DNA from: an uncultured bacterium
Lineage (GTDB): Bacteria; Patescibacteriota; Minisyncoccia; UBA6257; 2-01-FULL-56-20
Reading direction: 5' to 3'
Length of the DNA stretch: 64,000 nucleotides
Assembly: GCA_963719425.1 (NCBI GenBank)
Contig: OY970382.1
Location: forward strand, 385,246-449,245
A program made the translations under genes and the position numbers. Shown here in pieces: positions 4,991 through 31,419 of this stretch (the stretch's first letter is position 1; every line of letters starts with the position of its first letter). The notes beneath the pieces are model-generated. The model had not been told where the DNA came from. It saw only the letters and a list, made by a program, of their open reading frames with translations, and did not search any database.

Positions 4991-6684
4991 CGAACAATGA
5001 TGTTTAATTGGCAAAAATTCGAGATCACGTTTCCGTCGGCTTCATGCTCGTGGTAGATCACGGAAATATTGAAGGAGCCGTGCTGGGCGTCCGCCGCTGC
5101 CCGAAAGGTGAGTGACGAGGTCGCCGCGATGGGACCGGTCGGACTGCCTACCAAAACGACAACGCCATGGGGAAGATATCCCGTGGAAAGATCGTATGAT
5201 ATGCCATTAATAGAGGGATGAAGCACGGCGATAAACTGCGCGGTCCCGCCGAGGGGTAATTCCTGCGAAAAGGGCTCTATTTCGCAGGTTTGCTGGGCAC
5301 CGGGATTCACAAGCGTGATTCGGACCGGTGGCGCGGTGGAAGAGACCTCTTCATCCGTCGAACTTGGCGTGACCGGCGTTTCGGCCACTGATGGCAGTTC
5401 ATAATGCACCTCCACAAGCATCCCGTCTAAATAGACCGGCGGCAAAGGATCCTGCGTCGTCGGGATCCCTTGGACCCTTATCTGAAGGTTCTGAAGATCG
5501 GTCCAGTGCGATATCGGGAGCGTGACCGTGAACTCTTGCCAATTATCCACATTGACCTCGCCGATACTGACCCATGTTTGCCCGTCGGTGCTGTAGCTCA
5601 CGTCCAAAAAATTCTCGTCGGGGGTTGCCGGTGGGGCGGTCGCGGCCGTGGCTGTCGTACTCGTTGAGGCGATCGTCTCTTCCGATGAAGTTGACGCGGA
5701 TGACGTGGGTGTTGAAGTCTCGGATAAAAGGTTCGCGATCAATGGCTCACCTAATATCACCGTTTGAGAGGCATCGTCATCCGCGCGCGCGGCAGGAACA
5801 GCCCATGAAAAGAATTCCGGGGGCGAAATAAAAGAAGTTGTTGAATCGTTTGTATCATTCGTTGGTGCAGGCGGCGGAAGCGGCGGCGAAGGTGGCGGGG
5901 GCGTCACGACCGGAGGCGTTTCCATGTTGCCAGAAGATGAATTATCAACCGGTGCGGCATCGGAAGACGTTCCACTGGCCTCTGTGTCCGGAACAACAAT
6001 AGGAGCAGTGTCTGTTGGCACGACGGATGTCGCCGTGGTAATTGATGTGGTCGGAACGGTGGTCGTGGGCTCCCCTTCTTCTATGTTCTCCATTGAGGAA
6101 GCCGATGTGGCGCTACTCGAAGTTGAACTCGTGAAGTCCGGCGACGAAGTTCCATTCGCTTCATCCGACGGTGCCGCCGCGGCGGTGCTGGTCGTGGTCG
6201 TGGCGGTGACGGTCGTGGCGGAAGCGGTTTCGTCACCTATCTGCCACATGAACGTGAGGCCGACGTTCGTGATGTTGCTGGAGGTTGGAATATCGCCGCT
6301 CAAAAACCCACCGCAAAAGATCTGCGTGTCCGAGCCGTTGCTCAACGCGGAATTTTCCGCAGAGAACGGAGTGCCCGTGGCCATCGTTTCGGGCCGCCCT
6401 TGGGCGTTTGCGGGATTTTGCCAATCACCAAGACAGATGGATGGATAGAAATCTTGCACATCGGCGCGGAGCGAAAGGAGGCGAACACCAAAAAAAACAG
6501 CGACGACGAGCGCTAAACAACCGAGTATCCAAACCCAAGGGTGCCGCACCCGGAAGTTCGGCCTGAGATTAAGCGCGTTCTTTCCGTAGAGGATGTGCTT
6601 AAGGATGTTTTTTGAAGACGGGCGTGATGCCTTATGTACATCAAAAACTTTCTTCTCTTTACTGTCTTTTCTCGAGGAGGTCAT
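4987..6684 (-). CDS. Membrane-anchored Ser/Thr/Pro-rich low-complexity protein (565 aa), hypothetical. Co-oriented with and translationally coupled to the downstream giant gene.
   Basis: Complete ORF with an N-terminal TM segment (WVWILGCLALVVAVFFGV) and long poly-S/T/P linker. Its stop overlaps the start of the giant gene. Confidence 0.6.
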   Translation of the reverse strand: MTSSRKDSKEKKVFDVHKASRPSSKNILKHILYGKNALNLRPNFRVRHPWVWILGCLALVVAVFFGVRLLSLRADVQDFYPSICLGDWQNPANAQGRPETMATGTPFSAENSALSNGSDTQIFCGGFLSGDIPTSSNITNVGLTFMWQIGDETASATTVTATTTTSTAAAAPSDEANGTSSPDFTSSTSSSATSASSMENIEEGEPTTTVPTTSITTATSVVPTDTAPIVVPDTEASGTSSDAAPVDNSSSGNMETPPVVTPPPPSPPLPPPAPTNDTNDSTTSFISPPEFFSWAVPAARADDDASQTVILGEPLIANLLSETSTPTSSASTSSEETIASTSTTATAATAPPATPDENFLDVSYSTDGQTWVSIGEVNVDNWQEFTVTLPISHWTDLQNLQIRVQGIPTTQDPLPPVYLDGMLVEVHYELPSVAETPVTPSSTDEEVSSTAPPVRITLVNPGAQQTCEIEPFSQELPLGGTAQFIAVLHPSINGISYDLSTGYLPHGVVVLVGSPTGPIAATSSLTFRAAADAQHGSFNISVIYHEHEADGNVISNFCQLNIIVR

Positions 6685-6698
6685 TCCTCTCTATTTTA

Positions 6699-6739
6699 CC
6701 ATCAAAAACAGAAAATCCGCAGAAAAACTGTGGATTTTC
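6699..6739 (-). terminator. Rho-independent terminator downstream of sodA.
   Basis: Hairpin GAAAAUCCACAG-uuuuu-CUGCGGAUUUUC read on the minus strand, immediately after the sodA stop and followed by a UGUUUUUGAU run. Confidence 0.5.
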
Positions 6740-7347
6740 TAGAGATGCTTCTCTACCTCGCTCCAATTCACGACATTCCACCAGGCAGTGATATAATCCG
6801 GGCGCCTATTCTGGTATTTCAGATAGTACGCGTGCTCCCAAACATCCAATCCGAGCACCGGTTCCTGCCCTTTCGTGAGCGGGCTATCCTGGTTCGGCGT
6901 TGTAGCGACGATCAGCTTGCCATTGGCATCGCGCACGAGCCATGCCCAGCCACTTCCGAAAACGCCCCCCGCCGCTTTCGTAAACTCCTCTTTGAATTTC
7001 AGGAATCCTCCGAACGTCCGTGCAATCGCATCCCCTATTTTTCCGCTCGGCTCGCCACCTCCGCCGTTGTTTGGTCCGGCCATGATCGTCCAGAAAAACG
7101 AGTGGTTCGCGTGTCCCCCGCCGTGATTGCGCACCGCGGTGCGGATGTCCTCCGGCACGGAATCCAGCAACCGCAAGAGTTCCGCAAGCGGTCTGTCGGC
7201 GATCTCCGGATACTTTTCAAGCGCGGCATTCAGATTGTTCACATACGCCTGATGATGCTTCGTAAGGTGGATCTCCATCGTCTTCGCATCAATATACGGT
7301 TCAAGCGCCTCATAGGCATACGGCAGTTCTGGCAGTTCGTATTTCAT
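6739..7347 (-). CDS. sodA: Fe/Mn superoxide dismutase.
   Basis: Motifs [25 protein letters not shown] and DVWEHAYYL over 202 aa. Confidence 0.93.
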
Positions 7348-7419
7348 ATTATTTTTTATTAGTTAATTATATTTTCGCCCTTTATTATTCTTCAGATTTT
7401 TATTATACTCTGAATTGAT

Positions 7420-7490
7420 TGCGGGGTCGTCTAATGGTAGGACAGCGGCCTTTGGAGCCGTTTATCCTGGTCCGAATCCAGGCCCCGCAG
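7420..7490 (+). tRNA. tRNA-Gln, anticodon UUG.
   Basis: Cloverleaf folded by hand. Acceptor UGCGGGG/CCCCGCA with U1:A72, D-stem GUCU/GGAC, anticodon stem GCGGC/GCCGU with loop CUUUGGA (UUG at 34-36), T-arm CCUGG-UCCGAAU-CCAGG close to the E. coli tRNA-Gln T-arm (CCUGGUUCGAAUCCAGG, from memory). No encoded CCA. Confidence 0.85.
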
Positions 7491-7582
7491 CAGTCTAGTT
7501 TAGTTACGATGGACCAAGAGCCGTCGAAAACCGGACATCTCCGTCCCACCCACGTCATACCGGCTGAGCGCCGTATCCAGAG

Positions 7583-8808: not shown

Positions 8809-11800
8809 TTACGGGCGTCTTATCACGACCAATCTGATGTCCTTATTTGCGCTTCCTTTCCTGTTTAATTCTCGTCCCATATCTTCCAATACGACGCTAC
8901 AATCTTTCAGCGAGGCAAGATCCTTAAGGATTAAATCCCCCAATGTAGACGCATAATGAAAATCTTTGCTTGGTCCTTCAATATTGACTATCGTACGCTC
9001 CCCGCGCGATAGGTTAGCTTCGTCGTTTATGCTATTAAAACTTTCTAGTATTTTTTCGGAACCTGTCTTGGGTCCCACCGTGCCGTAGCCGGTGCCTGAG
9101 CAGATGATGTTTTGGAAACACTGGAATGCTTCGACGGCGCGCTCAGTCGCAGCGTCAAAGGTACCATTGATGAAAACGCCTGTAGAGAGATAACCGTCCT
9201 CGACCAGTATGTTCTGGAGGGTCGTGACCTCGGAGCCAACGCTCCCGAGAGAAAGGGATGATGCGGACGGGGCAAGCTGGGGAGACGAAACGGCAGTTGT
9301 CGGCGATGAGGATGGAGAAGAAGTGGGTGCGGAGGATATCGTCCCTCCCTCAAGGTTCTTGAGATACGCCCGGGTTATGGGGCCGAGGAACCCGCTCGCG
9401 GGCGAGATACCTGCACTCGCCTGATACTCGGCGAGGGCATCCTTCGTGAGATTGCCGAAGTAGCCCGTGGGATTGGTGAGCTTGCTTCCGGCGGGGCCGG
9501 TGGGGGCAAGGATATTGTTCGTGACGAGGTAGACCTGGAGGGCCCAGACGTCATCACCTTGGGAACCCACCGTCAAATTCCGGCCGGCATTCGCTGTGAA
9601 GAACATCTGGAGGGAGAGGGAGCGAACTTCTTGTACGAGTTGTAGCAACTGGGTGAGAAGATTAGTGCTTGCAGTGGAAACTATGGAAGTTGAGCTGCTG
9701 CCAGTTGTGGGCGGAGAATAGCCTCCACCGCCTCCACCACCACCACCGCCGCCGCCACTGCCGCCACTGCCGCCACTGCCTCCCGATACGACGGCCGCCT
9801 GGGTCGTCGCGCTGGTGCTCGAAGATTCTTCGGAGACATTGCCGGCGGCGTCGTAGGCATCAATAGTGTAGGTGTACGAGGTACCTGCCGAGAGACTGGT
9901 GTCATTGTAGGTTACGACGCTCGTCGTAGCAATCTTCGCACCGTTGCGGTAAACATGATAGCCAGCGACACCAACATAGTCCGTCGATGCGGACCAGGAT
10001 AGGTTGATCTCGCTTTGGGATACTGCGGTTGCGGTGAGGTTCTGCGGAATAGAAGGAGGTGTGCCGTCCACGGTCACGGTCACCTGGGCCGTTGAACTGC
10101 CGTTCGCATTCGCCGCCGTGAGGATATAGACGGTGGTGGAGGACGGAGAGACGACGACGAAGCCCGTCGACGTGGCGGATTGGTTGCCGATCCCTTGACT
10201 GATGGCGACAGTCGTCGCGAGCGCCGTCGTCCAGGAAAGGGTGCTTGATGCGCCGGGCATGATGAAGGCCGGGGACACCGTGAAGGACGTGATGGTCGGG
10301 GCGAGATTGCTCGGGGTCACGCTGTTGGAGGCCGAGGAGGACGCTGATGTTCCCGCGGCGTTCGTCGCCGTGACCGTGAAGGTGTAGCTCGTGCCGTTCG
10401 TGAGGCCGGAGACGACAATAAGGCTCGCCGTGGAGGAAGCCTGGATATTGCCGGAATCGGAGGTGGCTGCGTAATAGAGAACGGACGATCCCCCGTTCGA
10501 GCCAGGGGTGAAGGAAACGGTCGCTTGGGCATTTCCGGCAACAGCGGAAACGGACATCGGCGGGCTAGGGACCGTGTACGGCGTGGAGGAGACGACGTTG
10601 GAAGGCGTGGACGTACCGATGCTGTTCTCTGCCAGAACCTCAAAATCATAGCTCTGCCCATTCGCGAGGGAGGTCACTGTTGAGGTGGTTTGGCTTGGGG
10701 TAGTCGTGGCGTACAAAGCAAAGGTGGACGAGCCCGTCGTACGGTCGTAGACGAGGTATTGGGTGAGGATCGATCCACCATTTGAGGCGGGCGCCGACCA
10801 CGAGAGGGATACCTGGGCGTTGCTGGGGATGGCAGACAGGGACTGGGGTGGGGTGGGAGTGGTCGAAGTGACATTCTCAACGTTCACCGTGGTCGAGGCC
10901 GTGGAGGTGTTGTTTGAGGTGTCAGTCGAGAGCGCCCAGAGGGTCGTTGAACCGTTTGCGGTGCTGGTCGTATTCCAGAAAATGGAATAAAGGGTGCCGC
11001 TTGCGACCGTGGAGGAACCGACGAGGGTGCTCGAGGCAAGTCCCGCGCCATAGCTCCCTTCATAGAAAGCGACGCTCCGGACGTCAATATTGTCCGTGGA
11101 GGAGGCCGTGAGCGTAATGGTCGAGGAGACGGTGGCATTTGCGGCGGGGGCGATCCAGGTGACAACAGGAGGAGTGGTGTCGTTTGCGGTTGTAAGCGAG
11201 AGAGTCGCCCTGTCAAAGAAAGGCCCCGTAGAAAATGTATCATCCGCCTCAACGGTGAACGTAGTCGTCGTCGCGACAGTCGGCGTTCCCGAAATGACCC
11301 CGGTCGAGGTAGCCAGAGAAAGGCCCAGCGGCAACGAACCGCTTATGAGCATAAAGCTTACCGTTCCCTGCGTAGAGGTGGTCGTGAGCGTTTGGAAATA
11401 TGCGCTGCCGACCGCGCCCGTAGGAAACGAGGCGGTCGTTATCTTAATAAAGGAGAAGGACATAACTCGGTTCGCTGAGTTGTCAACGGCAAAAAGCCGA
11501 TTATTCACTGGATCGTAGGCCAGACCATACGGCGCACTAAGCCCGGTCTGCGTAACGCTCCCTCCCGATGAGGAAAAATCCGGCTGCCCAATATCGTTTG
11601 AGGCGGCCTCACCCTTTTGGATAGTCGAGGTTGCGACATTGTTCCAAACCATAATGCGTTGGTTTCCCTCATCGGTTACAAAGAGCCGTCCATTCGTCGC
11701 ATCATATGCAACACCGAAAGGAGTGCTCAATCCATCCGGGGCAGTATTGGTGTCTGATTCACCGAAGTCGGCCTGGCCGAGCTCGCTCAATGCAGCCTCG

Positions 11801-13905
11801 TGATTCGGAAAAGTTGACGTGCCGACCGCGAAGACCATGATGCGGTTATTGGTCTGATCCACCACAAACAGATGATTCAACGTCGGATCGTAGGTCACAG
11901 CCGTCGGCCCAGCAAGCCCCTGCGATGAGGAGTCCGCGGCCACTGTGGAAAAATCATCCTGGCCAAGCTCATCCGTCGAGCTCTCGTTGGTCGTCGCGAT
12001 GGTTGAGGTGGCGACATTGAAGACCATGATGCGACTATTGCCGTGATCCGCGACAAAAAGGCGGTTATCCGCCGCATCGTAGGCAAGACCGTACGGCGCA
12101 TTAAGACCGGTCTGCGTCGTGACGGAAGAGGAACTTGAAAAGTCCGCCTGGCCGAGCACGTCCGTTGAGGTCTCATTGGTCGCTATGGCTCCCGGAGCCA
12201 TATTGAAGACAAGGACGCGATTATTCCCGCTGTCAGCGACAAAAAGACGATCGTCCGCCGGATCATAGGCGAGACCATAGGGAGCATTGAGACCGTTTTG
12301 CGTTGTAGCGGCGTCGTCGCTCGTGAAATTGCTTTGTCCGAGAACGAACGAGGCGGTGGTGCTCGAAAGCCTGTTGTTCGCGTCCAAATTGAAGACAAGC
12401 ACGCGATTGTTGAGCTGGTCCGAAACAAAGAGCCGATGGTGCGCGACATCGAGTGCGGCATCAACCGGCGCATTGAAACCCTGGCCGTTCGGACCGCCGT
12501 TCGGCTCACCGGCGGTATATGTCGTCTGCCCGAGAAGACCGGAAGCGCTTTCGTTAGTGGAAATAGGGGCAATGACAGGGAAAACAATGACGCGGTTGTT
12601 ATTCTGATCGGAAACGAAAATCTGATCGCTCACCCCGTCAAACGCAACGCCAAAGGGGCCGTTCAGCCCATTTTGCGTCGTATTCGGGCCCTCACCCGAA
12701 AAATCAGCTTGGCCGATGACGCTCGTAGCGTCCTCGTCAGTCGGGAACGTCGAGGTGCCGACCGCGAAGACCATGACGCGGTTGTTGGCATTGTCGGTCA
12801 CAAAAAGACGATTATTGATTCCGTCGTAGGCCAGTCCTTCCGGACCGGAAAGGCCGTTTGATGAGGTATTCGGGTCCGCCGTTGAGAAATCCGCCTGGCC
12901 AAGCTCATCCGTCGAGCTCTCGTTAGTCGTCGTGATGGTTGAAGTGGCGACGTTAAAAACAAGGATACGATTGTTGCCCTGGTCCGCCACGAAGAGCCGG
13001 CTGTCACCGTCAAAGGCCAAACCACAGGGAGTCGTAAGCCCTTGTTGCGTCGTGGTGGCGACGGAACTTGAGAAATCCGCCTGGCCGAGCTCATCCGTCG
13101 AGCTCTCGTTGGGCGTCGCGATGGCTCCCGGAGCTGCATCAAAAACAAGGACACGATTGTTGCCTTGGTCCGCCACGAAGAGCCGGCTGCTCGTTGTGTC
13201 GTAGGCAAGGCCGTACGGGTCATTGAGGCCAGCCTGCGTCGTGGTGGCAACGGAACTTGAGAAATCCGCCTGGCCGAGCACCGCAGACGCAGCCTCGCCG
13301 TCCGCGAATCCCGGAGTCACATCGAACACCATCACGCGGTTGTTTACCCCGTCAGATACGAAGAGCCGCTCATTGACCGGATCGTACGCGAGGCCGTCGG
13401 GATACGCAAGGTTGGTTTGCGTCGTTATGGCGTTCACCGATATAAAATCGCTTTGTCCGAGAACGGAAGTCGGCGTCGTGCCCGAAATGGTGTTGTCCGC
13501 GTTAAGCGCGAACACGAGTACGCGGGCGTTGTTCTGGTCCGTCACAAAAAGACGGTGATGGAACGCATCCAGCGCGACGTCGCCCGGGTAATAGAATCCC
13601 TGGTTATTCGGACTATTGTTCGTCCCCCCTGCGGTATAAATAGGATTACCAATTTGGTCGACGTGCCCTAAAATACCGTCCGCATTATATAACGCGGCAC
13701 GCGCGGCAAGAGGAACCGTACAGACAATAAATCCAGCAATGGCGAAAAGGAAAACCCACCGAGAATCTTTGAGAAACGATCGACACATCATAGCTAGGAA
13801 GTCTACGCCAATCGGGTCGAAAAAAATAGGAAAAATTGTGGACAGCCTGTGAAATAATGCGCATACCGGCTCTCCAAGATCAGATCCGACAAAGAATGAT
13901 ACCAT
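8809..13905 (-). CDS. Giant secreted cell-surface protein (1698 aa). Signal peptide, ~16 or more NHL-type beta-propeller repeats (YDxxxxRLFVxDxxNNRVxVF), a putative Ig-like domain, 3 fibronectin-III-like domains, a GGSGG/poly-Gly linker, two PG_binding_1-like peptidoglycan-binding domains, and a short low-GC C-terminal tail.
   Basis: Single long ORF. The likely true start is the internal MMCRSFLKDSRWVFLFAIAGFIVCTVPLAARA signal peptide near 13791. Repeat motifs are readable in the translation. GC of the last ~250 nt (8809..9060) drops to ~40%. Confidence 0.85.
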   Translation of the reverse strand: MVSFFVGSDLGEPVCALFHRLSTIFPIFFDPIGVDFLAMMCRSFLKDSRWVFLFAIAGFIVCTVPLAARAALYNADGILGHVDQIGNPIYTAGGTNNSPNNQGFYYPGDVALDAFHHRLFVTDQNNARVLVFALNADNTISGTTPTSVLGQSDFISVNAITTQTNLAYPDGLAYDPVNERLFVSDGVNNRVMVFDVTPGFADGEAASAVLGQADFSSSVATTTQAGLNDPYGLAYDTTSSRLFVADQGNNRVLVFDAAPGAIATPNESSTDELGQADFSSSVATTTQQGLTTPCGLAFDGDSRLFVADQGNNRILVFNVATSTITTTNESSTDELGQADFSTADPNTSSNGLSGPEGLAYDGINNRLFVTDNANNRVMVFAVGTSTFPTDEDATSVIGQADFSGEGPNTTQNGLNGPFGVAFDGVSDQIFVSDQNNNRVIVFPVIAPISTNESASGLLGQTTYTAGEPNGGPNGQGFNAPVDAALDVAHHRLFVSDQLNNRVLVFNLDANNRLSSTTASFVLGQSNFTSDDAATTQNGLNAPYGLAYDPADDRLFVADSGNNRVLVFNMAPGAIATNETSTDVLGQADFSSSSSVTTQTGLNAPYGLAYDAADNRLFVADHGNSRIMVFNVATSTIATTNESSTDELGQDDFSTVAADSSSQGLAGPTAVTYDPTLNHLFVVDQTNNRIMVFAVGTSTFPNHEAALSELGQADFGESDTNTAPDGLSTPFGVAYDATNGRLFVTDEGNQRIMVWNNVATSTIQKGEAASNDIGQPDFSSSGGSVTQTGLSAPYGLAYDPVNNRLFAVDNSANRVMSFSFIKITTASFPTGAVGSAYFQTLTTTSTQGTVSFMLISGSLPLGLSLATSTGVISGTPTVATTTTFTVEADDTFSTGPFFDRATLSLTTANDTTPPVVTWIAPAANATVSSTITLTASSTDNIDVRSVAFYEGSYGAGLASSTLVGSSTVASGTLYSIFWNTTSTANGSTTLWALSTDTSNNTSTASTTVNVENVTSTTPTPPQSLSAIPSNAQVSLSWSAPASNGGSILTQYLVYDRTTGSSTFALYATTTPSQTTSTVTSLANGQSYDFEVLAENSIGTSTPSNVVSSTPYTVPSPPMSVSAVAGNAQATVSFTPGSNGGSSVLYYAATSDSGNIQASSTASLIVVSGLTNGTSYTFTVTATNAAGTSASSSASNSVTPSNLAPTITSFTVSPAFIMPGASSTLSWTTALATTVAISQGIGNQSATSTGFVVVSPSSTTVYILTAANANGSSTAQVTVTVDGTPPSIPQNLTATAVSQSEINLSWSASTDYVGVAGYHVYRNGAKIATTSVVTYNDTSLSAGTSYTYTIDAYDAAGNVSEESSSTSATTQAAVVSGGSGGSGGSGGGGGGGGGGGGYSPPTTGSSSTSIVSTASTNLLTQLLQLVQEVRSLSLQMFFTANAGRNLTVGSQGDDVWALQVYLVTNNILAPTGPAGSKLTNPTGYFGNLTKDALAEYQASAGISPASGFLGPITRAYLKNLEGGTISSAPTSSPSSSPTTAVSSPQLAPSASSLSLGSVGSEVTTLQNILVEDGYLSTGVFINGTFDAATERAVEAFQCFQNIICSGTGYGTVGPKTGSEKILESFNSINDEANLSRGERTIVNIEGPSKDFHYASTLGDLILKDLASLKDCSVVLEDMGRELNRKGSANKDIRLVVIRRP

Positions 13906-18350: not shown

Positions 18351-19628
18351 ATGGTACGTTCGCGGATACGCCGCTTCCTTAAGGTCCTCGGGCCGGGTCT
18401 CATCACGGGCGCCGCGGACGACGACCCTTCCGGCATCGCAACATATTCACAGACGGGAGCCCAATTCGGTTACGGACAACTTTGGACGGCGGTTTTTCTT
18501 TACCCGCTCATGACTGCGGTTCAGGAGGCGGCCGCCCGCATCGGCGCTGTGACTCGAAAAGGCATTGCCGCAGTTACAAAAGAACATTATGCGCGGAGGG
18601 TGCTCTACGGCATTGTAGCGCTCGTCGTCGTCGCAAACACTATCAATATCGGCGCGGACATAGGCGCGATGGCCGCATCGCTCCGCCTGATTATTCCCGT
18701 TCCTTTTGTAATCGCCGCCCTCCTCTTCGTGGTTGTCATACTGCTCCTTGAGATTTTCATCCCGTATAAACGCTACGTGTGGATACTGAAATGGCTCGTT
18801 CTTGTCATGCTCGTCTATCCCGCAACGATGCTTATTGTGCAGGAACCGTGGGGCGAGATCTTGCGCGCGACTTTTCTTCCCCATCTTGCGTTCTCTCCCT
18901 TGTTCCTTTTCATTCTTACTGGCGTCGCCGGCACCACTATCTCACCGTACTTGTTTTTCTGGCAGGCGTCGGAAGAAGTCGAGGAGGAAATAAAGAAAAA
19001 GACCGCGATGCGGACTTCAATCGGCAAAACATTCATAAAAAATATGCGGATTGATAACGCATTCGGCATGCTCGTCTCGCAATTCACCACGTGGTGCATC
19101 ATTATCACCACCGCGACCGTTCTCAATCAGCATGGCGTCACAAATATTGCCACCGCCGCCGACGCGGCGAAAGCTCTCTTTCCTTTGGTGCGTACATTTC
19201 CCCATGCGGGATTCCTTGCCGAATGCATCTTCGCCGTAGGCGTGATCGGGCTTGGATTGCTCTCGGTGCCCGTGCTCGCCGGGTCTGCGGCATATGCGGT
19301 TGCGGAAACATTTGACTGGCACGAAGGACTTTATAGAAAACTACGTTCGGCGCACGGATTCTACGGCGTGATCACGCTTGCAACCCTCCTCGGCCTCTGC
19401 ATCAACTTCATCGGCATTGATCCAATAAAAGCACTCATCGTCGCAGCCGTCGTGAACGCCGTGGCCGCCGTGCCGCTCATCCTCGTCATCATTTTCATCT
19501 CATCGAACCGCACAATCATGGGCGAGCACGCGAGCGGAATTCTTTCGCAGACGTTCCTCTGGATCACATTCGCGGCGATGCTCATTGCCGCCGGCGCGAC
19601 CCTATGGACGACGTTTTTGCCCACTTAA
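18351..19628 (+). CDS. mntH: NRAMP-family divalent metal (Mn2+/Fe2+) transporter.
   Basis: LGPGLITGAADDDPSGIATYSQTGAQFGY motif and ~11 TM helices. Confidence 0.9.
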   Translation: MVRSRIRRFLKVLGPGLITGAADDDPSGIATYSQTGAQFGYGQLWTAVFLYPLMTAVQEAAARIGAVTRKGIAAVTKEHYARRVLYGIVALVVVANTINIGADIGAMAASLRLIIPVPFVIAALLFVVVILLLEIFIPYKRYVWILKWLVLVMLVYPATMLIVQEPWGEILRATFLPHLAFSPLFLFILTGVAGTTISPYLFFWQASEEVEEEIKKKTAMRTSIGKTFIKNMRIDNAFGMLVSQFTTWCIIITTATVLNQHGVTNIATAADAAKALFPLVRTFPHAGFLAECIFAVGVIGLGLLSVPVLAGSAAYAVAETFDWHEGLYRKLRSAHGFYGVITLATLLGLCINFIGIDPIKALIVAAVVNAVAAVPLILVIIFISSNRTIMGEHASGILSQTFLWITFAAMLIAAGATLWTTFLPT

Positions 19629-24349: not shown

Positions 24350-24498
24350 ATACCTATTATAGCCGTTCCACGCGCCGTTTCGTTACCCGCATGGATATAA
24401 ACTCGTTTAACGACTTAACAATTAACAGCATACGAAATTGTCCGCCATTTTGCAACGTTGCCCGCGCAAGCCCGGCCGTGATATACTCTCCGTACCGA

Positions 24499-24912
24499 AT
24501 GACCAAAGAACAACAGTGGCAAATGAAGCAGGTGAGGCGTGCGACATGGATTTTCATCGCGATTGCCGCCGCACTTTCCATTCTTCTCTACCTCAAAAAT
24601 CTGCCGCCGCCGAATGGAACCTATGATGCGTTTGCCAAGTGCATCGCGAGCACCACGGCGAAATTCTACGGCGCGTTTTGGTGCCCCCACTGCGAGGATC
24701 AAAAGCGCGAATTCGGCGATGCTGCCCAGTATCTCCCCTACGTAGAATGCTCAACGCCGGATGCCTCGGGAGAAACCAAGCCATGCAAAGACGCGGGCAT
24801 CACGGAATACCCGACATGGTACTTCCCCGACGGCTCAAGTTCCACAGGCGTTCAATCGCTGCAGACGCTTTCCCAAAAAACCGGCTGTTCCCTGTCCACG
24901 TCCACGCCGTAG
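24499..24912 (+). CDS. Membrane-anchored thioredoxin-fold thiol-disulfide oxidoreductase (DsbA/BdbD-like) with a CPHC active site.
   Basis: KFYGAFWCPHCEDQKREFG. The probable start is the internal MTKEQQ at 24499; the track ORF begins at 24391. Confidence 0.7.
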   Translation: MTKEQQWQMKQVRRATWIFIAIAAALSILLYLKNLPPPNGTYDAFAKCIASTTAKFYGAFWCPHCEDQKREFGDAAQYLPYVECSTPDASGETKPCKDAGITEYPTWYFPDGSSSTGVQSLQTLSQKTGCSLSTSTP

Positions 24913-24936
24913 GGCATATGTAATATAATTCCATCT

Positions 24937-25494
24937 ATGGCCCCGTTCGCCGAGCACATCACGGATATTCTTTCGCTCCTCACGCTCCTCGCCGACATCT
25001 TTGCCGTGGCACTTTTTCTTCTGCTCATAACCCCGCTCAAGCGGCATGGCTGGGGCAGAACGCTCGCCGACTTTTTCGGCGAGCGGGCAATTTTCCTTTC
25101 GTTCCTCACCGCCTTCGCCGCCACCTTCGGCAGCTTGTTCTATTCGCAAGTAGTGGGATTCCCGCCATGCGATCTCTGCTGGTGGCAGCGCATCTTCCTC
25201 TATCCGCAAACGATCCTCCTTTTCACCGCGTTCATAAAAAAAGACGAGAATATGCGCCTGCATTCCATCGTCCTCTCAAGCGTGGGCGCCCTGATCGCGC
25301 TCTATCAGACATTCATACAATTCGGCGGCATGTCGCTCGTCCCCTGCTCCGCCACCAGTCCGAGCTGCACCGTCTTATATTTCCTTGAGTACGGCTATAT
25401 CACCATCCCCACAATGTCCCTCACCGCGTTCGTGCTGCTTCTCCTCTTTATGGCGGCGCCGAATCCCAAACGGAAGGAAGTGAATGAGCTGTAA
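24937..25494 (+). CDS. DsbB/BdbC-family disulfide bond formation protein.
   Basis: Four TM helices and a CDLCWWQRI motif. Adjacent to the thioredoxin-like gene. Confidence 0.75.
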   Translation: MAPFAEHITDILSLLTLLADIFAVALFLLLITPLKRHGWGRTLADFFGERAIFLSFLTAFAATFGSLFYSQVVGFPPCDLCWWQRIFLYPQTILLFTAFIKKDENMRLHSIVLSSVGALIALYQTFIQFGGMSLVPCSATSPSCTVLYFLEYGYITIPTMSLTAFVLLLLFMAAPNPKRKEVNEL

Positions 25495-25505
25495 CTCGCG
25501 CTTTC

Positions 25506-26606
25506 TTACCGCAACGTCACGCAAACAATCTCCGATTTCGTCCCAAACCGCAAGGGCGGCCCCCAAGTACCTGCGCCGCTTGAGATATATACCTGCATAC
25601 CATTCAAACGCATGAGGCCATAATCAAAGCCGCGATATATCCTCCGAGTCAAAAAATTAATCGGGAAGATCTGGCCATGGTGGGTGTGGCCGGACAGCAC
25701 GAGCGGAACTCCCACGTCGCGCGCGACCGTAAGGTGGCTCGGTTCGTGTTTGATAAGAATTGTGGGCTTGTCTTTGGGAATACTCATGTCGTGTAATACA
25801 CGCGCGAAATCGTTTTTGTGATGTACGGCCCTATTGTCCACGCCCGCAATCGCAAGTCCCTCGAGATCCGCAACTTCGTTATTTAAAATCCTGATGCCGA
25901 CGGCCCGTATCGCTGCAAGCGCCTCCGTCATGTTTGGCAAAAAATATTCGTGATTGCCTGTCACGAAATAAACACCCTGCAGCGGGCGGAGCGATCGCAG
26001 CGGTTCAATGAGCGCCGCGGCATCGCACCGCGTGCCGTCGTAGAGATCACCGCCGATCGCAACGGCTTCCGGATGCAATGCGTTTATCCTCTCCGCAACC
26101 TTCCGCGCGAATGCCTGACGCCGCACATTCCCCAAGTGAAGATCGCTCACGAACGCGAGGCGTTTCCCCCGCCACGACGCGGGGAGATCGGGAAGCGCGA
26201 TATCCAAAAACGTCGTCCCCACCCTGCCGCTCATCCACGTTCCATAACAATGCAGAAGAAAAAGTGCCCCAAAAGCAATGCCGCCGAGGAAGGCGGGCGG
26301 CACATAAACGTTCGTGCGATACAGCACGTTCGCGGACAGGAAAAACAAAACTGCGCCCACAAAGAGAAAATGTACGAGACCGAACCAATATGCAGCAGCG
26401 GTATAAAACCAGTCAACTGCACGGCCGCGGTACCGGTGGGTAAGAAGGGACGCCGAAAGAAAAGTAAACGCCAAGACCGTAAAGGCTATTTCAAGCGCTG
26501 TCCCGCCGATGCCGAACGCCGCAGCCAAGGTCGCGTACACCGCGAGATGGACGAATATCAAAAGAACTTGCAGCGCGCACAGCACGAGGATGACCGTAAG
26601 CAGCAT
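25506..26606 (-). CDS. Membrane-anchored calcineurin-like metallophosphoesterase.
   Basis: GDLHLG, GDLYDG and GNHEY motifs. Confidence 0.8.
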   Translation of the reverse strand: MLLTVILVLCALQVLLIFVHLAVYATLAAAFGIGGTALEIAFTVLAFTFLSASLLTHRYRGRAVDWFYTAAAYWFGLVHFLFVGAVLFFLSANVLYRTNVYVPPAFLGGIAFGALFLLHCYGTWMSGRVGTTFLDIALPDLPASWRGKRLAFVSDLHLGNVRRQAFARKVAERINALHPEAVAIGGDLYDGTRCDAAALIEPLRSLRPLQGVYFVTGNHEYFLPNMTEALAAIRAVGIRILNNEVADLEGLAIAGVDNRAVHHKNDFARVLHDMSIPKDKPTILIKHEPSHLTVARDVGVPLVLSGHTHHGQIFPINFLTRRIYRGFDYGLMRLNGMQVYISSGAGTWGPPLRFGTKSEIVCVTLR

Positions 26607-26608
26607 GG

Positions 26609-27013
26609 CTACGAATTCTCCCTTGCTATTTTTCCCAGGATTGCGATGAGTGTCGCGCGCTCCCGTGGCGTGAGTACCGCGAACATCCTGTTCAACTGCC
26701 CTGCTTTTTTGCGGATACCCTGTGCAAGGAACTCCTTACCGCGACTGGTAAGCTTGATACGCACCGTACGCCGGTCTTTTTTGTCAAACGACCGCGCAAG
26801 CAACTTGTCCTTCACCAATCCGTCAATGAGAAGCGTCGCCGCCGGCGGCGTCACGCGAAGGTACCGTGCGACATCGTGCATGAAGGGACGCCCTTCCTCT
26901 TGCACATATCGAAGCGTGTGGAAATGCAGCATGGAGTACGCATGGTGCTCGTCCCGCATGCGGCGTCCGACGCAAAAGAGCAAAGAAAGGATCTTGACGT
27001 TCTTGGAGGGCAT
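26609..27013 (-). CDS. MarR-family transcriptional regulator.
   Basis: 134 aa with a winged-HTH MarR pattern. Confidence 0.8.
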   Translation of the reverse strand: MPSKNVKILSLLFCVGRRMRDEHHAYSMLHFHTLRYVQEEGRPFMHDVARYLRVTPPAATLLIDGLVKDKLLARSFDKKDRRTVRIKLTSRGKEFLAQGIRKKAGQLNRMFAVLTPRERATLIAILGKIARENS

Positions 27014-27093
27014 GGATAATTAGGTTACTTAACTATTATGCGGCCTGGCAGCGAAGGATGTCAAGGAGGCATAGTGAATGCTATAATTAAGGC

Positions 27094-28857
27094 ATTCAAA
27101 CGAAAGAAACAAAAGCCTGTCAGAATTGCAAAAACCAATTTACGATTGAGCCGGAGGACTTCGCATTTTACGAGAGGATTGACGTCCCGCCGCCGACATG
27201 GTGCCCAGAGTGCCGAATCCAGAGGCGATCGGTATTTTGGAACGAGCATTCCCTGTTCCGCAAAAAGGACGCCCTCACCGGAAAAGAAATATTTTCCACC
27301 TATCCCGAAGAGTCCCGCATTTCGATTTACGACCATGATTACTGGTGGTCAGACGCGTTCGATCCGATGCGGTACGGGCGGGAGTATGATTTCTCTAAAC
27401 CATTTTTTGAGCAGTTCAATACACTGTCATATGAAGTTCCGTGGCCTTCACGAGCGGTCCAAAGGTTGGTGAACAGCGATTACTCGAACCAAGCGTCAGA
27501 TGACAAAAATTGTTACCTTTGTTTCAACGGGAACTTTGGCGAAGACTGCCTCTATGGAGTTGCTTTCAACCGGACGAAGAACTGCGTTGACTTTTATCAA
27601 ATCCAAGATTGCGGGTACTCGTATGAAATCTTTTCAGTAAACAAGGGCTACAAGAATTTCTTCACCGTGGAGAGTGACAACTGCCGCGAATCATGGTTTT
27701 TGCTCAACTGCCACGATTGCGACCATTGTTTCGGCTGTGTGAACCTGTGGCACAAACAATACCACATTTTCAACGTCCCCTACTCAAAAGAGGAGTATGC
27801 AGAGCGGATAAAGAAGCTCAACCTGGGATCCTACGAATCCCTACAGAAAATACGCAAAGAAGTGCTTGCATTTCAGACGCGATATCCGCTGCGGTTCATG
27901 CACGGGGGAGGACTCAATACCAATGTCACCGGAGAGTACGTCTACCAGTCAAGAAATGCGCGGGATTGCTACCAAGGGGTGGCGATAGAAAATTCAAGGT
28001 TCGTGCAAAGCGTCTCTGACGGCGTCAAGGACTCATATGATTACACGAACTGGGGCCAGAACAGCGAATTGATTTATGAATCGGTAAGCATCGGGGAGGA
28101 TTGCCAGAGAATCAAGTTCTCCTTTGATTGCTGGCCCGCGTGCCAAGACGTTGAATATTCCATGAATTGCCACTCCTCTTTCGGATTGTTCGGCTGCGTC
28201 GGACTGAAAAAGAAAAATTACTGTGTCCTTAACAAGCAATATTCGAAAAAGGCCTACGAAGACCTGGTGGAAAAGATCAAGGCGCATATGAATTCAGTGC
28301 CGTATAAGGACAAGGCGGGAAGGACATACCGCTACGGCGAGTTCTTTCCGCCAGAATTCTCCCCTCTCGCCTATAATGATTCATCCGCGATAGATTACTT
28401 CCCGCTCAGCAAAGAGTCAGCGACAAAAGGCGGCTTTGCTTGGCGCGATGCTCCTCCCCAAAAATATGTAGCCGATGTCCTCGCTCGTAATTTGCCGGAT
28501 CACATAGACGATGCGGGGAAAGAGATCACGAAGAAGATCATCTCCTGCGGTGCCTGTTCAAAAGCATATCGGATAGTGCCGACCGAGTTTGACTTTTATC
28601 AACAGTTCGGCATTCCGCTGCCGCGGCTTTGCCACAATTGCCGCTTTTCGGAGAGACTGAAGTTCAAAAACCCACCGAGGTTCTGGCATCGCGCTTGCCA
28701 ATGCACAGGTCAAAAAAGCGAAAACGGCGCATATGCAAATACAGGAGTCCATTTCCACAAGGACACTCGTTGCCCCAACGAATTTGAAACACCCTATGCC
28801 CCCGACCGCCCCGAGATCGTGTACTGCGAGCAGTGCTACAACGCAGAAGTGGTGTAA
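27094..28857 (+). CDS. Cysteine-rich multi-zinc-ribbon protein. The track ORF starts at 27367, but the conserved-looking coding frame is open from 27091 with no canonical start.
   Basis: The same frame upstream of Met-27367 encodes ...KACQNCKNQFTIEPEDFAFYERIDVPPPTWCPEC.... That segment is an internal repeat of ISCGACSKAYRIVPTEFDFYQQFGIPLPRLCHNC later in the protein. Other repeats include CH..FGCVxL...Y.xxN..YSK..YE. There is no ATG/GTG/TTG between the stop at 27088-27090 and 27367. ATT at 27094 is the only start-like codon. Confidence 0.55.
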   Translation: MQTKETKACQNCKNQFTIEPEDFAFYERIDVPPPTWCPECRIQRRSVFWNEHSLFRKKDALTGKEIFSTYPEESRISIYDHDYWWSDAFDPMRYGREYDFSKPFFEQFNTLSYEVPWPSRAVQRLVNSDYSNQASDDKNCYLCFNGNFGEDCLYGVAFNRTKNCVDFYQIQDCGYSYEIFSVNKGYKNFFTVESDNCRESWFLLNCHDCDHCFGCVNLWHKQYHIFNVPYSKEEYAERIKKLNLGSYESLQKIRKEVLAFQTRYPLRFMHGGGLNTNVTGEYVYQSRNARDCYQGVAIENSRFVQSVSDGVKDSYDYTNWGQNSELIYESVSIGEDCQRIKFSFDCWPACQDVEYSMNCHSSFGLFGCVGLKKKNYCVLNKQYSKKAYEDLVEKIKAHMNSVPYKDKAGRTYRYGEFFPPEFSPLAYNDSSAIDYFPLSKESATKGGFAWRDAPPQKYVADVLARNLPDHIDDAGKEITKKIISCGACSKAYRIVPTEFDFYQQFGIPLPRLCHNCRFSERLKFKNPPRFWHRACQCTGQKSENGAYANTGVHFHKDTRCPNEFETPYAPDRPEIVYCEQCYNAEVV

Positions 28858-28957
28858 GGCAGTGGACAGTAAACACGGTGCTCAAAAAAACCCGCACACG
28901 TGCGGATTCTTTTGAACAAGAACATATTACCCATCGCTGGGCCCATTGCTAAGCCCG

Positions 28958-29413
28958 TTACTGGCCCGTTGGGGCGACGCTACCCCCGCTGCCATTGCCG
29001 CCGCCCCCGGGGCCGGGCGCATTGCCTCCGCGCACCTGGATGGTCTGCGCGGTTACGCTCCCGTCGGAATTCTGTGTCCCTCCGATGATCACGCTTGTTC
29101 CGGGTGCAAGATCACTTACGGACGCCGGCGAGGGTTTGATGACCGAGGTAGAACTGGAATAGAACACAACCTCGGAATTGCCGTTCGGAAGCTGCACCGT
29201 CAAGCTCTGCGCGTCCTTGGAGGTGATTTGTCCCGTCACGAAACCGCCGCCGCTCCCCGTGCGACCGCCCCCGCTGCGCGTTGAACTCGCAAAGGCGCCA
29301 CGCCCCGCAAACGAAGGGGAAGCCGTCGCCTTTCCGTAATACATGCCGCCCACGAATGCCACGATCGCGACGACAAGCCAGACGATATGCACGATATATT
29401 TTTTCATAAACAT
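28958..29413 (-). CDS. Membrane-anchored small protein with a Gly-rich region and a beta domain (DUF5666-like), hypothetical.
   Basis: 151-aa ORF at the distal end of the efflux operon. Confidence 0.5.
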   Translation of the reverse strand: MFMKKYIVHIVWLVVAIVAFVGGMYYGKATASPSFAGRGAFASSTRSGGGRTGSGGGFVTGQITSKDAQSLTVQLPNGNSEVVFYSSSTSVIKPSPASVSDLAPGTSVIIGGTQNSDGSVTAQTIQVRGGNAPGPGGGGNGSGGSVAPTGQ

Positions 29414-29440
29414 TTAACGATTGATTTTAACGACCTTTCG

Positions 29441-30682
29441 TCACTCATATCGCAACGCTTCAATAGGACTCAATCCTGCCGCGCGACGCGCGGGATAATA
29501 GCCAAAAACGATGCCGATGGCAGCAGAAACGCCGAACGCAAGGATGATAGAGCTCAACGACACGCTGGTCGCGATGGAAGTGAAATGCGTAACCAAGAAC
29601 GCGATCAGCCATCCAAGAATGATCCCGACCATCCCGCCGACGAAGGTCAACATGACAGATTCGGCGAGGAACTGGAGCGTAATGTCCTTCCGTTTTGCGC
29701 CGATCGCCTTACGAAGGCCGATCTCGCGCGTACGCTCCGTGACCGTCGTGAGCATCATATTCATGATGCCGATACCACCGACGAGGAGCGAGATGCCCGC
29801 AATCGCAGCGAGAAGCGTCGTAAAAGTACCCGTTACGGACGATGCCGCCGCCACGATATCTGCCTGATTCAGCACGTTAAAATCCGCCAGCGTCGGATCG
29901 GAAATATTGTGCCGTTGAAGCAAGAGGTTTGCAATATCATTTTGCGCCTGCGTCATAACCGCCTGGGTGGCAGCTTCCACATCAATCTCCGTGACGTAAG
30001 AAGTACTGCCCAAAAGAAAGTGCTGTGCCGTCGTGAGGGGTACATAGATCATGTTGTCCTGATTGTTGAACCCGCTACCGCCTTTAGAAACGGTAACGCC
30101 GACAACTTTGAAATCAAGATTTTTTATGCGAATCGTCTGCCCAATTGCCATATCCGGCGTCGCGGTGGCATTCGTGCTTCCGAAAAGATCTTGAAGCACC
30201 GTGGGACCGATCACCGCGACGCGGCTGGAGGCGGAAACGTCTGCGTCTGAAATGAACACCCCCTGCGCCACCTGTAGGTTGCGCACCTGGGTATACGCGG
30301 AAACCACTCCCATCACGCTCGTATTGGTATTCGTGCCTTTGTAAAGCACTTGGTACCGCCCACTCACCTCGGGCGAGATCGCCGCGACGCCCGAAAGCTG
30401 TCCGATGGCGGTCGCATCGTCGGGTGTGAGTGTTTCCGCGCTCCCCCGCCCCGCGCTCACCGTGGAACCAATGGAACGCTGCGTGCCCGGCATGATGATA
30501 AGAAGGTTGGAGCCGATGGACTGGATGCTGGACTGAATTGAACCTTGCGCGCCCTGCCCAATCGCCTGCAATGCGATCACGGACGCAATGCCGATCACGA
30601 TGCCCAACATCGTAAGCCCCGACCGCACTTTGTTTACGGTCACGGCGCCATAGGTTTCTTCAAAGAGATCTTGAGTGGTCAT
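29441..30682 (-). CDS. ABC transporter permease, MacB/FtsX-type.
   Basis: Two blocks of FtsX-type TM helices around a large extracytoplasmic domain, 413 aa. Confidence 0.85.
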   Translation of the reverse strand: MTTQDLFEETYGAVTVNKVRSGLTMLGIVIGIASVIALQAIGQGAQGSIQSSIQSIGSNLLIIMPGTQRSIGSTVSAGRGSAETLTPDDATAIGQLSGVAAISPEVSGRYQVLYKGTNTNTSVMGVVSAYTQVRNLQVAQGVFISDADVSASSRVAVIGPTVLQDLFGSTNATATPDMAIGQTIRIKNLDFKVVGVTVSKGGSGFNNQDNMIYVPLTTAQHFLLGSTSYVTEIDVEAATQAVMTQAQNDIANLLLQRHNISDPTLADFNVLNQADIVAAASSVTGTFTTLLAAIAGISLLVGGIGIMNMMLTTVTERTREIGLRKAIGAKRKDITLQFLAESVMLTFVGGMVGIILGWLIAFLVTHFTSIATSVSLSSIILAFGVSAAIGIVFGYYPARRAAGLSPIEALRYE

Positions 30683-30690
30683 GGCAAAAG

Positions 30691-31419
30691 TTATTGCAAT
30701 TCCTTTTCGTGCCGCGCGAGGCGTTTTTGATGATTTTTTTCGTCGCTTAAAATGTTTCCGTCGCGGATATGGATGATCCGGTCCGCGTGCTTCGCAATAT
30801 CATCTTCGTGCGTGATCAAGATGATGGTCTTGCCGTGTTGTGTGTTGAGTGTCTGGAACGTGTACAGCACCATCTCACCGGTTTTGGAATCAAGGTTGCC
30901 CGTCGGCTCGTCGGCGAGGATAAGCGCTGGATTGTTCACGAGCGACCGTGCAACCGCCACGCGCTGCATCATGCCGCCACTAAGCTGGTTTGAGTGATAC
31001 TGCCAGAACTCCTCAGGAAATGCTGAATCGCGGAGCGCTTGTGCAGCGATCGTTTCCCTTTTTTCCTTGGCAACCCCTTCGTAGATGAGTGGCAGGGAAA
31101 CATTGCGCAATACCGTCGTGCGCGGCAAAAGATTGAACGCCTGGAACACAAACCCTATTTTTTCCCGACGGATGTCGGCAAGCTCGTCATCCGAAAGTTC
31201 CGCAATATTCTTACCGTCCAAAAAATACTCGCCGCCCGAGGGCGTATCCAGCGCACCCAAAATGTGCATAAGGGTTGACTTGCCCGACCCCGACGGTCCC
31301 ATAACGGCGACGAACTCACCCTCTCCGATGGAAAACGTAATGCCTTTCAGAACTTCAGTGTCTATGCCGCCGGTGTGATAGGTCTTCCGGATATCATTGC
31401 ATTCAATGATGGTCTTCAT
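30691..31419 (-). CDS. ABC transporter ATP-binding protein (MacB/LolD-type).
   Basis: Walker [10 protein letters not shown], signature [15 protein letters not shown], Walker [12 protein letters not shown]. Confidence 0.9.

Follow-up and report, generated by a model that had tools for sequence, protein, structure and literature searches.

The gene described here lies in a 64,000-nucleotide (nt) stretch, hereafter the window, of an uncultured member of the Patescibacteriota (GenBank assembly GCA_963719425.1, contig OY970382.1). It encodes a cysteine-rich protein of 587 amino acids (aa) whose conserved 5' end carries no canonical start codon. The frame of the first in-frame ATG (27367) is open between a TAA at 27088-27090 and a TAA at 28855-28857, and scanning positions 27091-27366 in frame found no ATG, GTG or TTG, in agreement with a preliminary description made from the DNA letters. 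Near-cognate codons in this frame are ATT at 27094, 27145, 27178, 27319 and 27325, ATC at 27217, CTG at 27253 and ATA at 27289. A gene for a MarR-family regulator is divergently oriented on the upstream side, and a terminator-like hairpin follows the stop codon. Coordinates of all features are collected in Table 1.

Table 1. Features of the cysteine-rich gene and its surroundings, in window coordinates
Feature	Position	Strand	Details and basis
Divergent MarR-family regulator gene	26609..27013	-	Pfam MarR_2 / MarR, E ~2e-7
marR promoter-like site	27035..27064	-	TTGACA (27064-59), 18 nt, CATAAT (27040-35); scan, 11/12 matches
Promoter of the cysteine-rich gene (predicted)	27058..27087	+	-35 ATGTCA (27058-63), 18-nt spacer, extended -10 TGcTATAAT (27079-87)
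AAGGAGG, probably fortuitous	27063..27069	+	Ahead of the predicted +1; the opposite strand has the overlapping marR -35
24-bp near-palindrome, halves TGAATGCTATAA and TTAAGGCATTCA	27075..27098	.	Repeat finding; spans the -10 box, +1 and ATT codon
ATT, presumptive start codon and predicted +1 (A27094)	27094..27096	+	6 nt after TATAAT; aligned with the Met of relatives
Full coding sequence	27094..28857	+	587 codons and TAA; relatives of 585-590 aa cover 99-100%
N-terminal zinc ribbon / treble-clef-like module	27118..27213	+	C9, C12 ... C37, C40; invariant in 111/111
First canonical in-frame ATG	27367..27369	+	Met92 when the 587-aa product is counted from ATT 27094 (codon 93 if counted from the upstream TAA)
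Two cysteine-rich, beta-rich repeat modules	27454..28293	+	Each ends FGCVxL..K.Y.I.N..YSK.EY and a helix; motif positions, AlphaFold2 (AF2)
GTG, start in the public annotation	27472..27474	+	462-aa product P0001
C-terminal zinc ribbon and terminal Cys/His cluster	28546..28836	+	Invariant or nearly invariant columns
Intrinsic terminator-like hairpin CCGCACACGTGCGG and T-run	28892..28915	+	Terminator scan

Conservation of the full-length protein

A protein database search with the 588-aa conceptual translation returned at least 6,500 relatives, typically 585-590 aa long and covering 99-100 per cent of the query. The best of these are 58 per cent identical at that coverage (E down to 1e-245), and those with a name are all Patescibacteria, including Jorgensen-, Lipton-, Sung- and Harrisonbacteria among others. 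Homology is collinear over the full length and takes in both terminal ribbons as well as the FGCVxL duplication. Nine N-terminal residues (C9, C12, C37, C40, R41, R44, R45, W84 and D87) are invariant in 111 of 111 aligned sequences, and the window protein keeps every invariant column of the family. Across the 144 conserved columns it differs at seven, always by a conservative change, and the family median is six. The alignment thus presents the window protein as conserved like any other family member, with no sign of long-term decay. The open reading frame (ORF) is intact, constraint on the conserved residues is kept and the start codon alone is affected, which is not the pattern of a pseudogene. 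Because the ORF is undecayed, the start-codon change should be recent, tolerated or artefactual.

Since the ninety-two codons upstream of ATG 27367 are covered and conserved in every full-length relative, four invariant ribbon cysteines included, we regard them as genuine coding sequence, and the view of the preliminary description that they are translated holds. The public record of the protein, P0001, begins at GTG 27472 and is 100 per cent identical to the window protein over 79 per cent of the query. Conservation of the N-terminal stretch across relatives therefore marks this 462-aa record as truncated, and its GTG start reads as an artefact of gene calling. The same evidence bears on the proposal that the cell makes only an N-terminally truncated product from ATG 27367 or GTG 27472, with the upstream codons an untranslated relic. 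These are indeed the first canonical in-frame starts, and the public record uses the second. Such a product would nonetheless lose the four invariant cysteines and other invariant residues that are all intact here, and no convincing Shine-Dalgarno (SD) sequence lies ahead of either codon. Homologues that begin at the equivalent of ATG 27367 were looked for and none was found among 153 relatives, so the family start lies elsewhere; the short relatives P0022, P0039 and P0107 carry a normal upstream ATG. We consider truncation very unlikely.

The 587-aa product contains thirty cysteines, and its FGCVxL..K.Y...N..YSK..YE module is duplicated at residues 213 and 366. The N-terminal ribbon is a repeat of the C-terminal one (BLASTP, 35 per cent identity over 46 aa, E = 5e-11), whose cysteines are C485, C488, C513 and C516; beyond it lies the terminal cluster of C535, C537, H553, H555, C560, C578 and C581. 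The AF2 model is well scored (predicted local distance difference test 86, predicted template-modelling score 0.88). The window protein matched no entry in Pfam, NCBIfam, PDB or PADLOC, with a single weak PHROGs match to a family of unknown function. Likewise, the roughly 450 residues beyond the part covered by the zinc-finger models named below had no match in Pfam, NCBIfam, PDB sequences or Foldseek-PDB, and the beta-rich modules show at most faint similarity to beta-helix proteins. The nearest named domains are zf_Tbcl and zf_Tbcl_2 (PF13451 and PF23477, probable treble-clef zinc fingers), with which the family shares its CxxC...CxxC ribbons; the two models match some relatives, PF13451 eight of twenty-two (best E = 1.1e-6). 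Unlike those relatives, the window protein falls below every Pfam threshold, and the models span only a domain-sized part. On these profile and structure searches the protein appears to belong to no named family. The repeated ribbon, the count of about thirty cysteines, the recurring FGCVxL..YSK units and the lack of a nameable family had all been reported in the preliminary description, and each stands. The family comprises at least 6,500 zinc-rich sequences with no detectable solved-structure match.

The family match found by tblastn was about 2.2-2.6 kb long, rather than about 1.77 kb, in several loci (L006, L034, L062, L073, L087, L089, L094, L117-L120 and L122). Either inserted sequence within the gene or tandem copies joined into one match could account for the longer matches.

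The family start codon and the ATT at 27094

To locate the family start we surveyed 153 distinct N-termini from 127 fetched loci. In 149 of the 153, an in-frame ATG lies 3-16 codons before the first cysteine, most often at -7 (ninety-seven cases) or -8 (fifteen cases). Three of the remaining relatives have an ATG at -24 or -25 and one has only a TTG; a GTG was found in none. The window N-terminus reads I-Q-T-K-E-T-K-A-C, which puts the isoleucine (ATT) at -8 from the first cysteine and aligns it with the methionine of relatives such as M-N-Q-S-E-T-K-T-C. By this alignment ATT 27094 is the positional homologue of the family ATG, and a single G to T difference at 27096 would separate the two. 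The window gene is the sole family member seen without a canonical start. Initiation at ATT 27094 had been one of the candidates offered beforehand, and as the position of the start it is borne out by the relatives.

Four short relatives (P0022, P0039, P0107 and P0108) were considered as recurrent cases of non-canonical starts and set aside, as three have a normal ATG and one is frameshifted in a short contig. The public calls for P0022, P0039 and P0107 (loci L128, L130 and L131/L132) begin at an internal ATG just past the N-terminal ribbon. It looks as though leaderless genes that lack an SD are systematically mis-annotated, their starts misplaced by gene callers built to expect one. Recognizing leaderless architecture in Patescibacteria thus corrects gene calls, the 462-aa record and these mis-started relatives among them.

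That one base separates the gene from its family raises the question of whether the base is correct. The consensus could hold a base-call error, or the assembler could have picked a minority allele, in which case the true codon at 27094-96 is ATG and nothing sets the gene apart from other leaderless members of the family. An ATT unique among more than 155 relatives, a canonical state restored by one base, and a fully intact ORF with typical conservation would all be expected of such an error. Large indel-type assembly damage, on the other hand, is not apparent in the window, where many ORFs of 600-1700 aa are intact, though no systematic test was made. In our estimate a wrong base at one given position of an accurate consensus is also a priori rarer than a real start substitution. 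The T moreover completes a base pair of the 24-bp near-palindrome, which a random error would do with a one-in-three chance; this is weak evidence. We looked for a sister strain or species in which to read base 27096, and no relative above 60 per cent identity was present in the protein database, genome contigs or metagenome contigs. An error or minority allele is unlikely on balance, with a chance that is still appreciable.

Leaderless architecture and the upstream region

When 150 relatives were aligned at their starts, an SD-like core was present in only fifteen. A TATAAT-like hexamer ending 5-9 nt before the start was found in thirty, against 0-10 in shifted controls, and the gap between this box and the ATG peaks at 6 nt. 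The window gap is also 6 nt. These patterns show that the family typically has a leaderless architecture.

The same geometry recurs elsewhere in the window. It has thirty-one perfect TATAAT boxes, and at seven of them the ATG of a long ORF comes 5-9 nt later (chance rate 2.3 per cent per site), and the genes concerned include those for SecA, Nramp, a major facilitator superfamily (MFS) transporter and DsbB. The seven sites lie at 18351(+), 20979(-), 24349(-), 24937(+), 35758(-), 48919(-) and 58354(-); at each, the box sits 6-8 nt before the ATG and no SD is present. Genes of this genome thus seem to use leaderless initiation regularly, that for SecA included. Our search for literature on leaderless translation specific to the Candidate Phyla Radiation (CPR)/Patescibacteria found none.

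We also tallied the codons at the leaderless position across 610 kb of Patescibacteria DNA. ATG occurred thirty-three times. Other codons were at background level and had a canonical start 0-15 codons away, with the exception of the window ATT, for which the next canonical start is ninety-one codons downstream. It is the only non-ATG case of leaderless type in the 610 kb. A second candidate (TATAAT 7371, ATA 7359, minus strand) was rejected, as it belongs to a superoxide dismutase gene that starts at ATG 7347. That Fe/Mn superoxide dismutase gene, 6741-7347(-), has its TATAAT 18 nt upstream of the ATG and a short SD-less leader. It adjoins tRNA-Gln(TTG) at 7420-7491(+), and the plus-strand ORF 6634-7362 is a shadow ORF.

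At the cysteine-rich gene, a promoter scan independently calls a site with ten of twelve matches and a TG. The TATAAT at 27082-27087 is preceded by TG at 27079-80, making an extended -10, and ends 6 nt before ATT 27094. No GGAG, GAGG or AGGA occurs between -17 and -5 relative to this ATT, and RNA beginning at 27094 has no predicted structure over its first 40 nt (0 kcal/mol; 200 of 200 shuffles fold at least as well). An Rfam scan of 25000-31000 gave no match. Together with the hairpin downstream, these features describe a self-contained unit of promoter, ORF and terminator that is predicted to be leaderless, with ATT as its +1 codon. A leaderless gene canonically has a 5'-terminal AUG or GUG; the codon here is ATT, where 152 of 153 relatives have ATG. 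The earlier hint of a near-leaderless mRNA, taken from the TATAAT box, is supported by the matching geometry in the relatives and in other window genes.

A perfect AAGGAGG stands 24 nt before ATT 27094, beyond the reach of an SD. The motif occurs eleven times in the window where about eight copies are expected, so it is not enriched. Downstream of it, the out-of-frame GTG 27074 follows after 4 nt, and ATG 27078, from which just ML* can be read, after 8 nt. ATG 27078 was rejected as the start, since it is part of the extended -10 and the relatives have an in-frame ATG at the ATT position. Two further explanations make use of AAGGAGG.

In the first, translation would start at GTG 27074 in the +2 frame and shift by -1 on A_AAG (27103-05), whether by programmed frameshifting or through an assembly indel in this A-rich stretch, to give MNAIIKAFKRK-ETKAC.... 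No stop interrupts the GTG frame in this region, and A_AAG is a known slippery tetramer. Only 4 nt separate AAGGAGG from the GTG, however, and the predicted +1 falls downstream of both. The tetramer is not part of a full slippery heptamer, a stimulator is not evident, and no relative has such an N-terminus; the family ATG sits at the ATT position. We give this route a very slight chance.

In the second, a longer transcript would carry an SD-led mini-ORF, ATG-CTA-TAA (27078-86), and the terminating 70S ribosome would reinitiate at AUU 27094, 7 nt downstream. AAGGAGG is ideally spaced for this ATG. The ATG nevertheless is just an A joined to the TG that opens the extended -10, with TATAA after it, and so comes with the promoter. 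No upstream promoter was found, the arrangement is absent from relatives, and a longer transcript would have its AUU base-paired in a hairpin formed by the palindrome. Reinitiation is the least probable of the explanations considered here. Even combined, all models other than a real substitution or an error or minority allele have a small share of the probability.

The near-palindrome has perfect outer arms of 7 bp, and its pattern occurs nowhere else in the window. Within it T27096 is the partner of A27077, a pairing that a G would abolish; this tips the balance slightly towards a T that is real and possibly meaningful. The divergent MarR regulator noted in the preliminary description, like the TATAAT box itself, was confirmed (Pfam and sequence, respectively), and the promoter scan found two sites in the region where 0.4 are expected. 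The palindrome is a candidate operator, plausibly for the divergent MarR. MarR repressors with palindromic operators over the -10 and +1 of a divergent gene are a known arrangement, and here likewise a divergent marR stands beside a near-palindrome over the -10 box and +1. Unlike in those systems, the operator here is putative and the pairing with marR is absent from all sampled relatives (no tblastn match in 127 loci).

Genomic setting and the AUU codon among known systems

Relatives of the gene form same-strand arrays of three to seven paralogues, often with overlapping stop and start codons. The arrays adjoin a VirD4/TraG-like coupling ATPase (PF02534, PF10412, PF12696, DUF87, DUF8128) and often CutA1; examples are L134 4361-13611, L135 2541-13758 and L136 4247-9579, as well as L128 and L131. 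A gene resembling a type IV coupling protein (T4CP) lies within 1.2-1.5 kb in 34 of 124 relative loci. A survey of Patescibacteria counted 5,713 VirD4-like genes, of which only 148 were near virB4 (PMC12102498). The arrays may be the reason for these many orphan VirD4 homologues, scattered across Patescibacteria genomes. Such orphan ATPases may work with the cysteine-rich family, whose members are possibly their substrates or adaptors, and the array neighbourhood is a lead to what these ATPases act on. The window copy is solitary within the 64 kb, and no T4CP-like or CutA1 gene was found there. A stray copy that the cell can do without would fit this setting.

Two genes upstream of the cysteine-rich gene lies an adjacent pair encoding a thioredoxin-fold protein and a DsbB homologue, 24391-25494(+), a disulfide-bond formation pair in a Patescibacterium. 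The window also encodes a 1,698-aa protein, 8809-13905(-), with NHL repeats, fibronectin type III, Big_7 and peptidoglycan-binding domains, a putative large surface or cell-contact protein.

Our preferred explanation is that the extended -10 promoter would place +1 at A27094 and that the leaderless ATG of the family is changed here to ATT by G to T at 27096. If the T is real, the sole route of initiation would be 70S/fMet-tRNA on a 5'-terminal AUU, which is very poorly read in known systems, and the full 587-aa protein would be made at a small fraction of the normal level or not at all. We think it probable that the substitution is real and expression weak or absent, which leaves a solitary copy that is hypomorphic or was silenced very recently. 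The case would then be ordinary in kind, a single-base start-codon difference in a leaderless gene that involves neither a frameshift nor a new mechanism. Of the three options left by the preliminary description, an unusual mechanism is not needed, and the choice between initiation at ATT and a mutation or sequencing error narrows to a one-base difference between ATG and ATT.

Several points weigh against this explanation. The start of transcription at A27094 rests on prediction, and the perfect AAGGAGG stays unexplained. The nearest relative is 58-60 per cent identical in all three collections, so a consensus error is possible, and the intact 587-codon ORF is equally expected if base 27096 is truly G. 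With AUU nearly dead as a leaderless start, a hypomorph and a null are indistinguishable here. The sequences themselves show how far the coding extends, that the ATT is the positional homologue of the family ATG, that the family and this genome have leaderless architecture, and that the ORF is undecayed; the transcription start, the weak initiation at AUU and the reality of the T are things that we infer.

Experiments in other bacteria set the expectation for the ATT. With leaderless reporters in Caulobacter, changing AUG to AUU or other near-cognates drastically lowers expression (PMC8459731). In mycobacteria, leaderless translation starts from ATG or GTG only, and ATT works only when SD-led (PMC4633059). 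Mitochondria alone routinely read AUU, AUA or AUC on leaderless mRNAs (PMC8459731, PMC11775629). Since leaderless ends that carry AUU have very poor activity or none in such reporters, the gene is probably hypomorphic or freshly silenced, or else the base is erroneous. Should the ATT prove real and the protein be produced, the gene would offer a rare natural test of the reporter rule that only AUG and GUG start leaderless translation in bacteria.

In its architecture the gene resembles bacterial leaderless mRNAs such as lambda cI and genes of mycobacteria, Caulobacter and Deinococcus. As in these, the -10 box precedes the start by 6-8 nt, an SD is lacking, and the coding sequence opens with an unstructured, A-rich stretch. 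The difference is in the codon, as known bacterial leaderless starts are AUG (with GUG in mycobacteria) and the predicted 5'-terminal codon here is AUU. AUU start codons do occur naturally in E. coli, in infC and pcnB. In these genes, as with the SD-led mycobacterial ATT, expression from a natural AUU that truly starts a protein is low and tunable. Initiation of the infC/pcnB type is, however, SD-led and proceeds on 30S subunits under discrimination by IF3, and the cysteine-rich gene has no usable SD, so that mechanism is inapplicable.

A further likeness is to mammalian mitochondria, in which a 5'-terminal AUH on a leaderless mRNA is read as the initiator, like the AUU predicted here. Mammalian mitochondria use a specialised tRNA-Met. 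Theirs is an organellar system with IF3mt, one without a demonstrated counterpart in free-living or episymbiotic bacteria. That T 27096 is real and maintained, and that this Patescibacterium makes the full-length, conserved protein by translating a leaderless mRNA that begins with AUU, is a doubtful prospect to which we give a modest chance. The T might then be retained because it throttles expression and perfects the candidate 24-bp operator palindrome. If true, this would be natural bacterial leaderless initiation at a non-RUG codon, which is otherwise known only from mitochondria.

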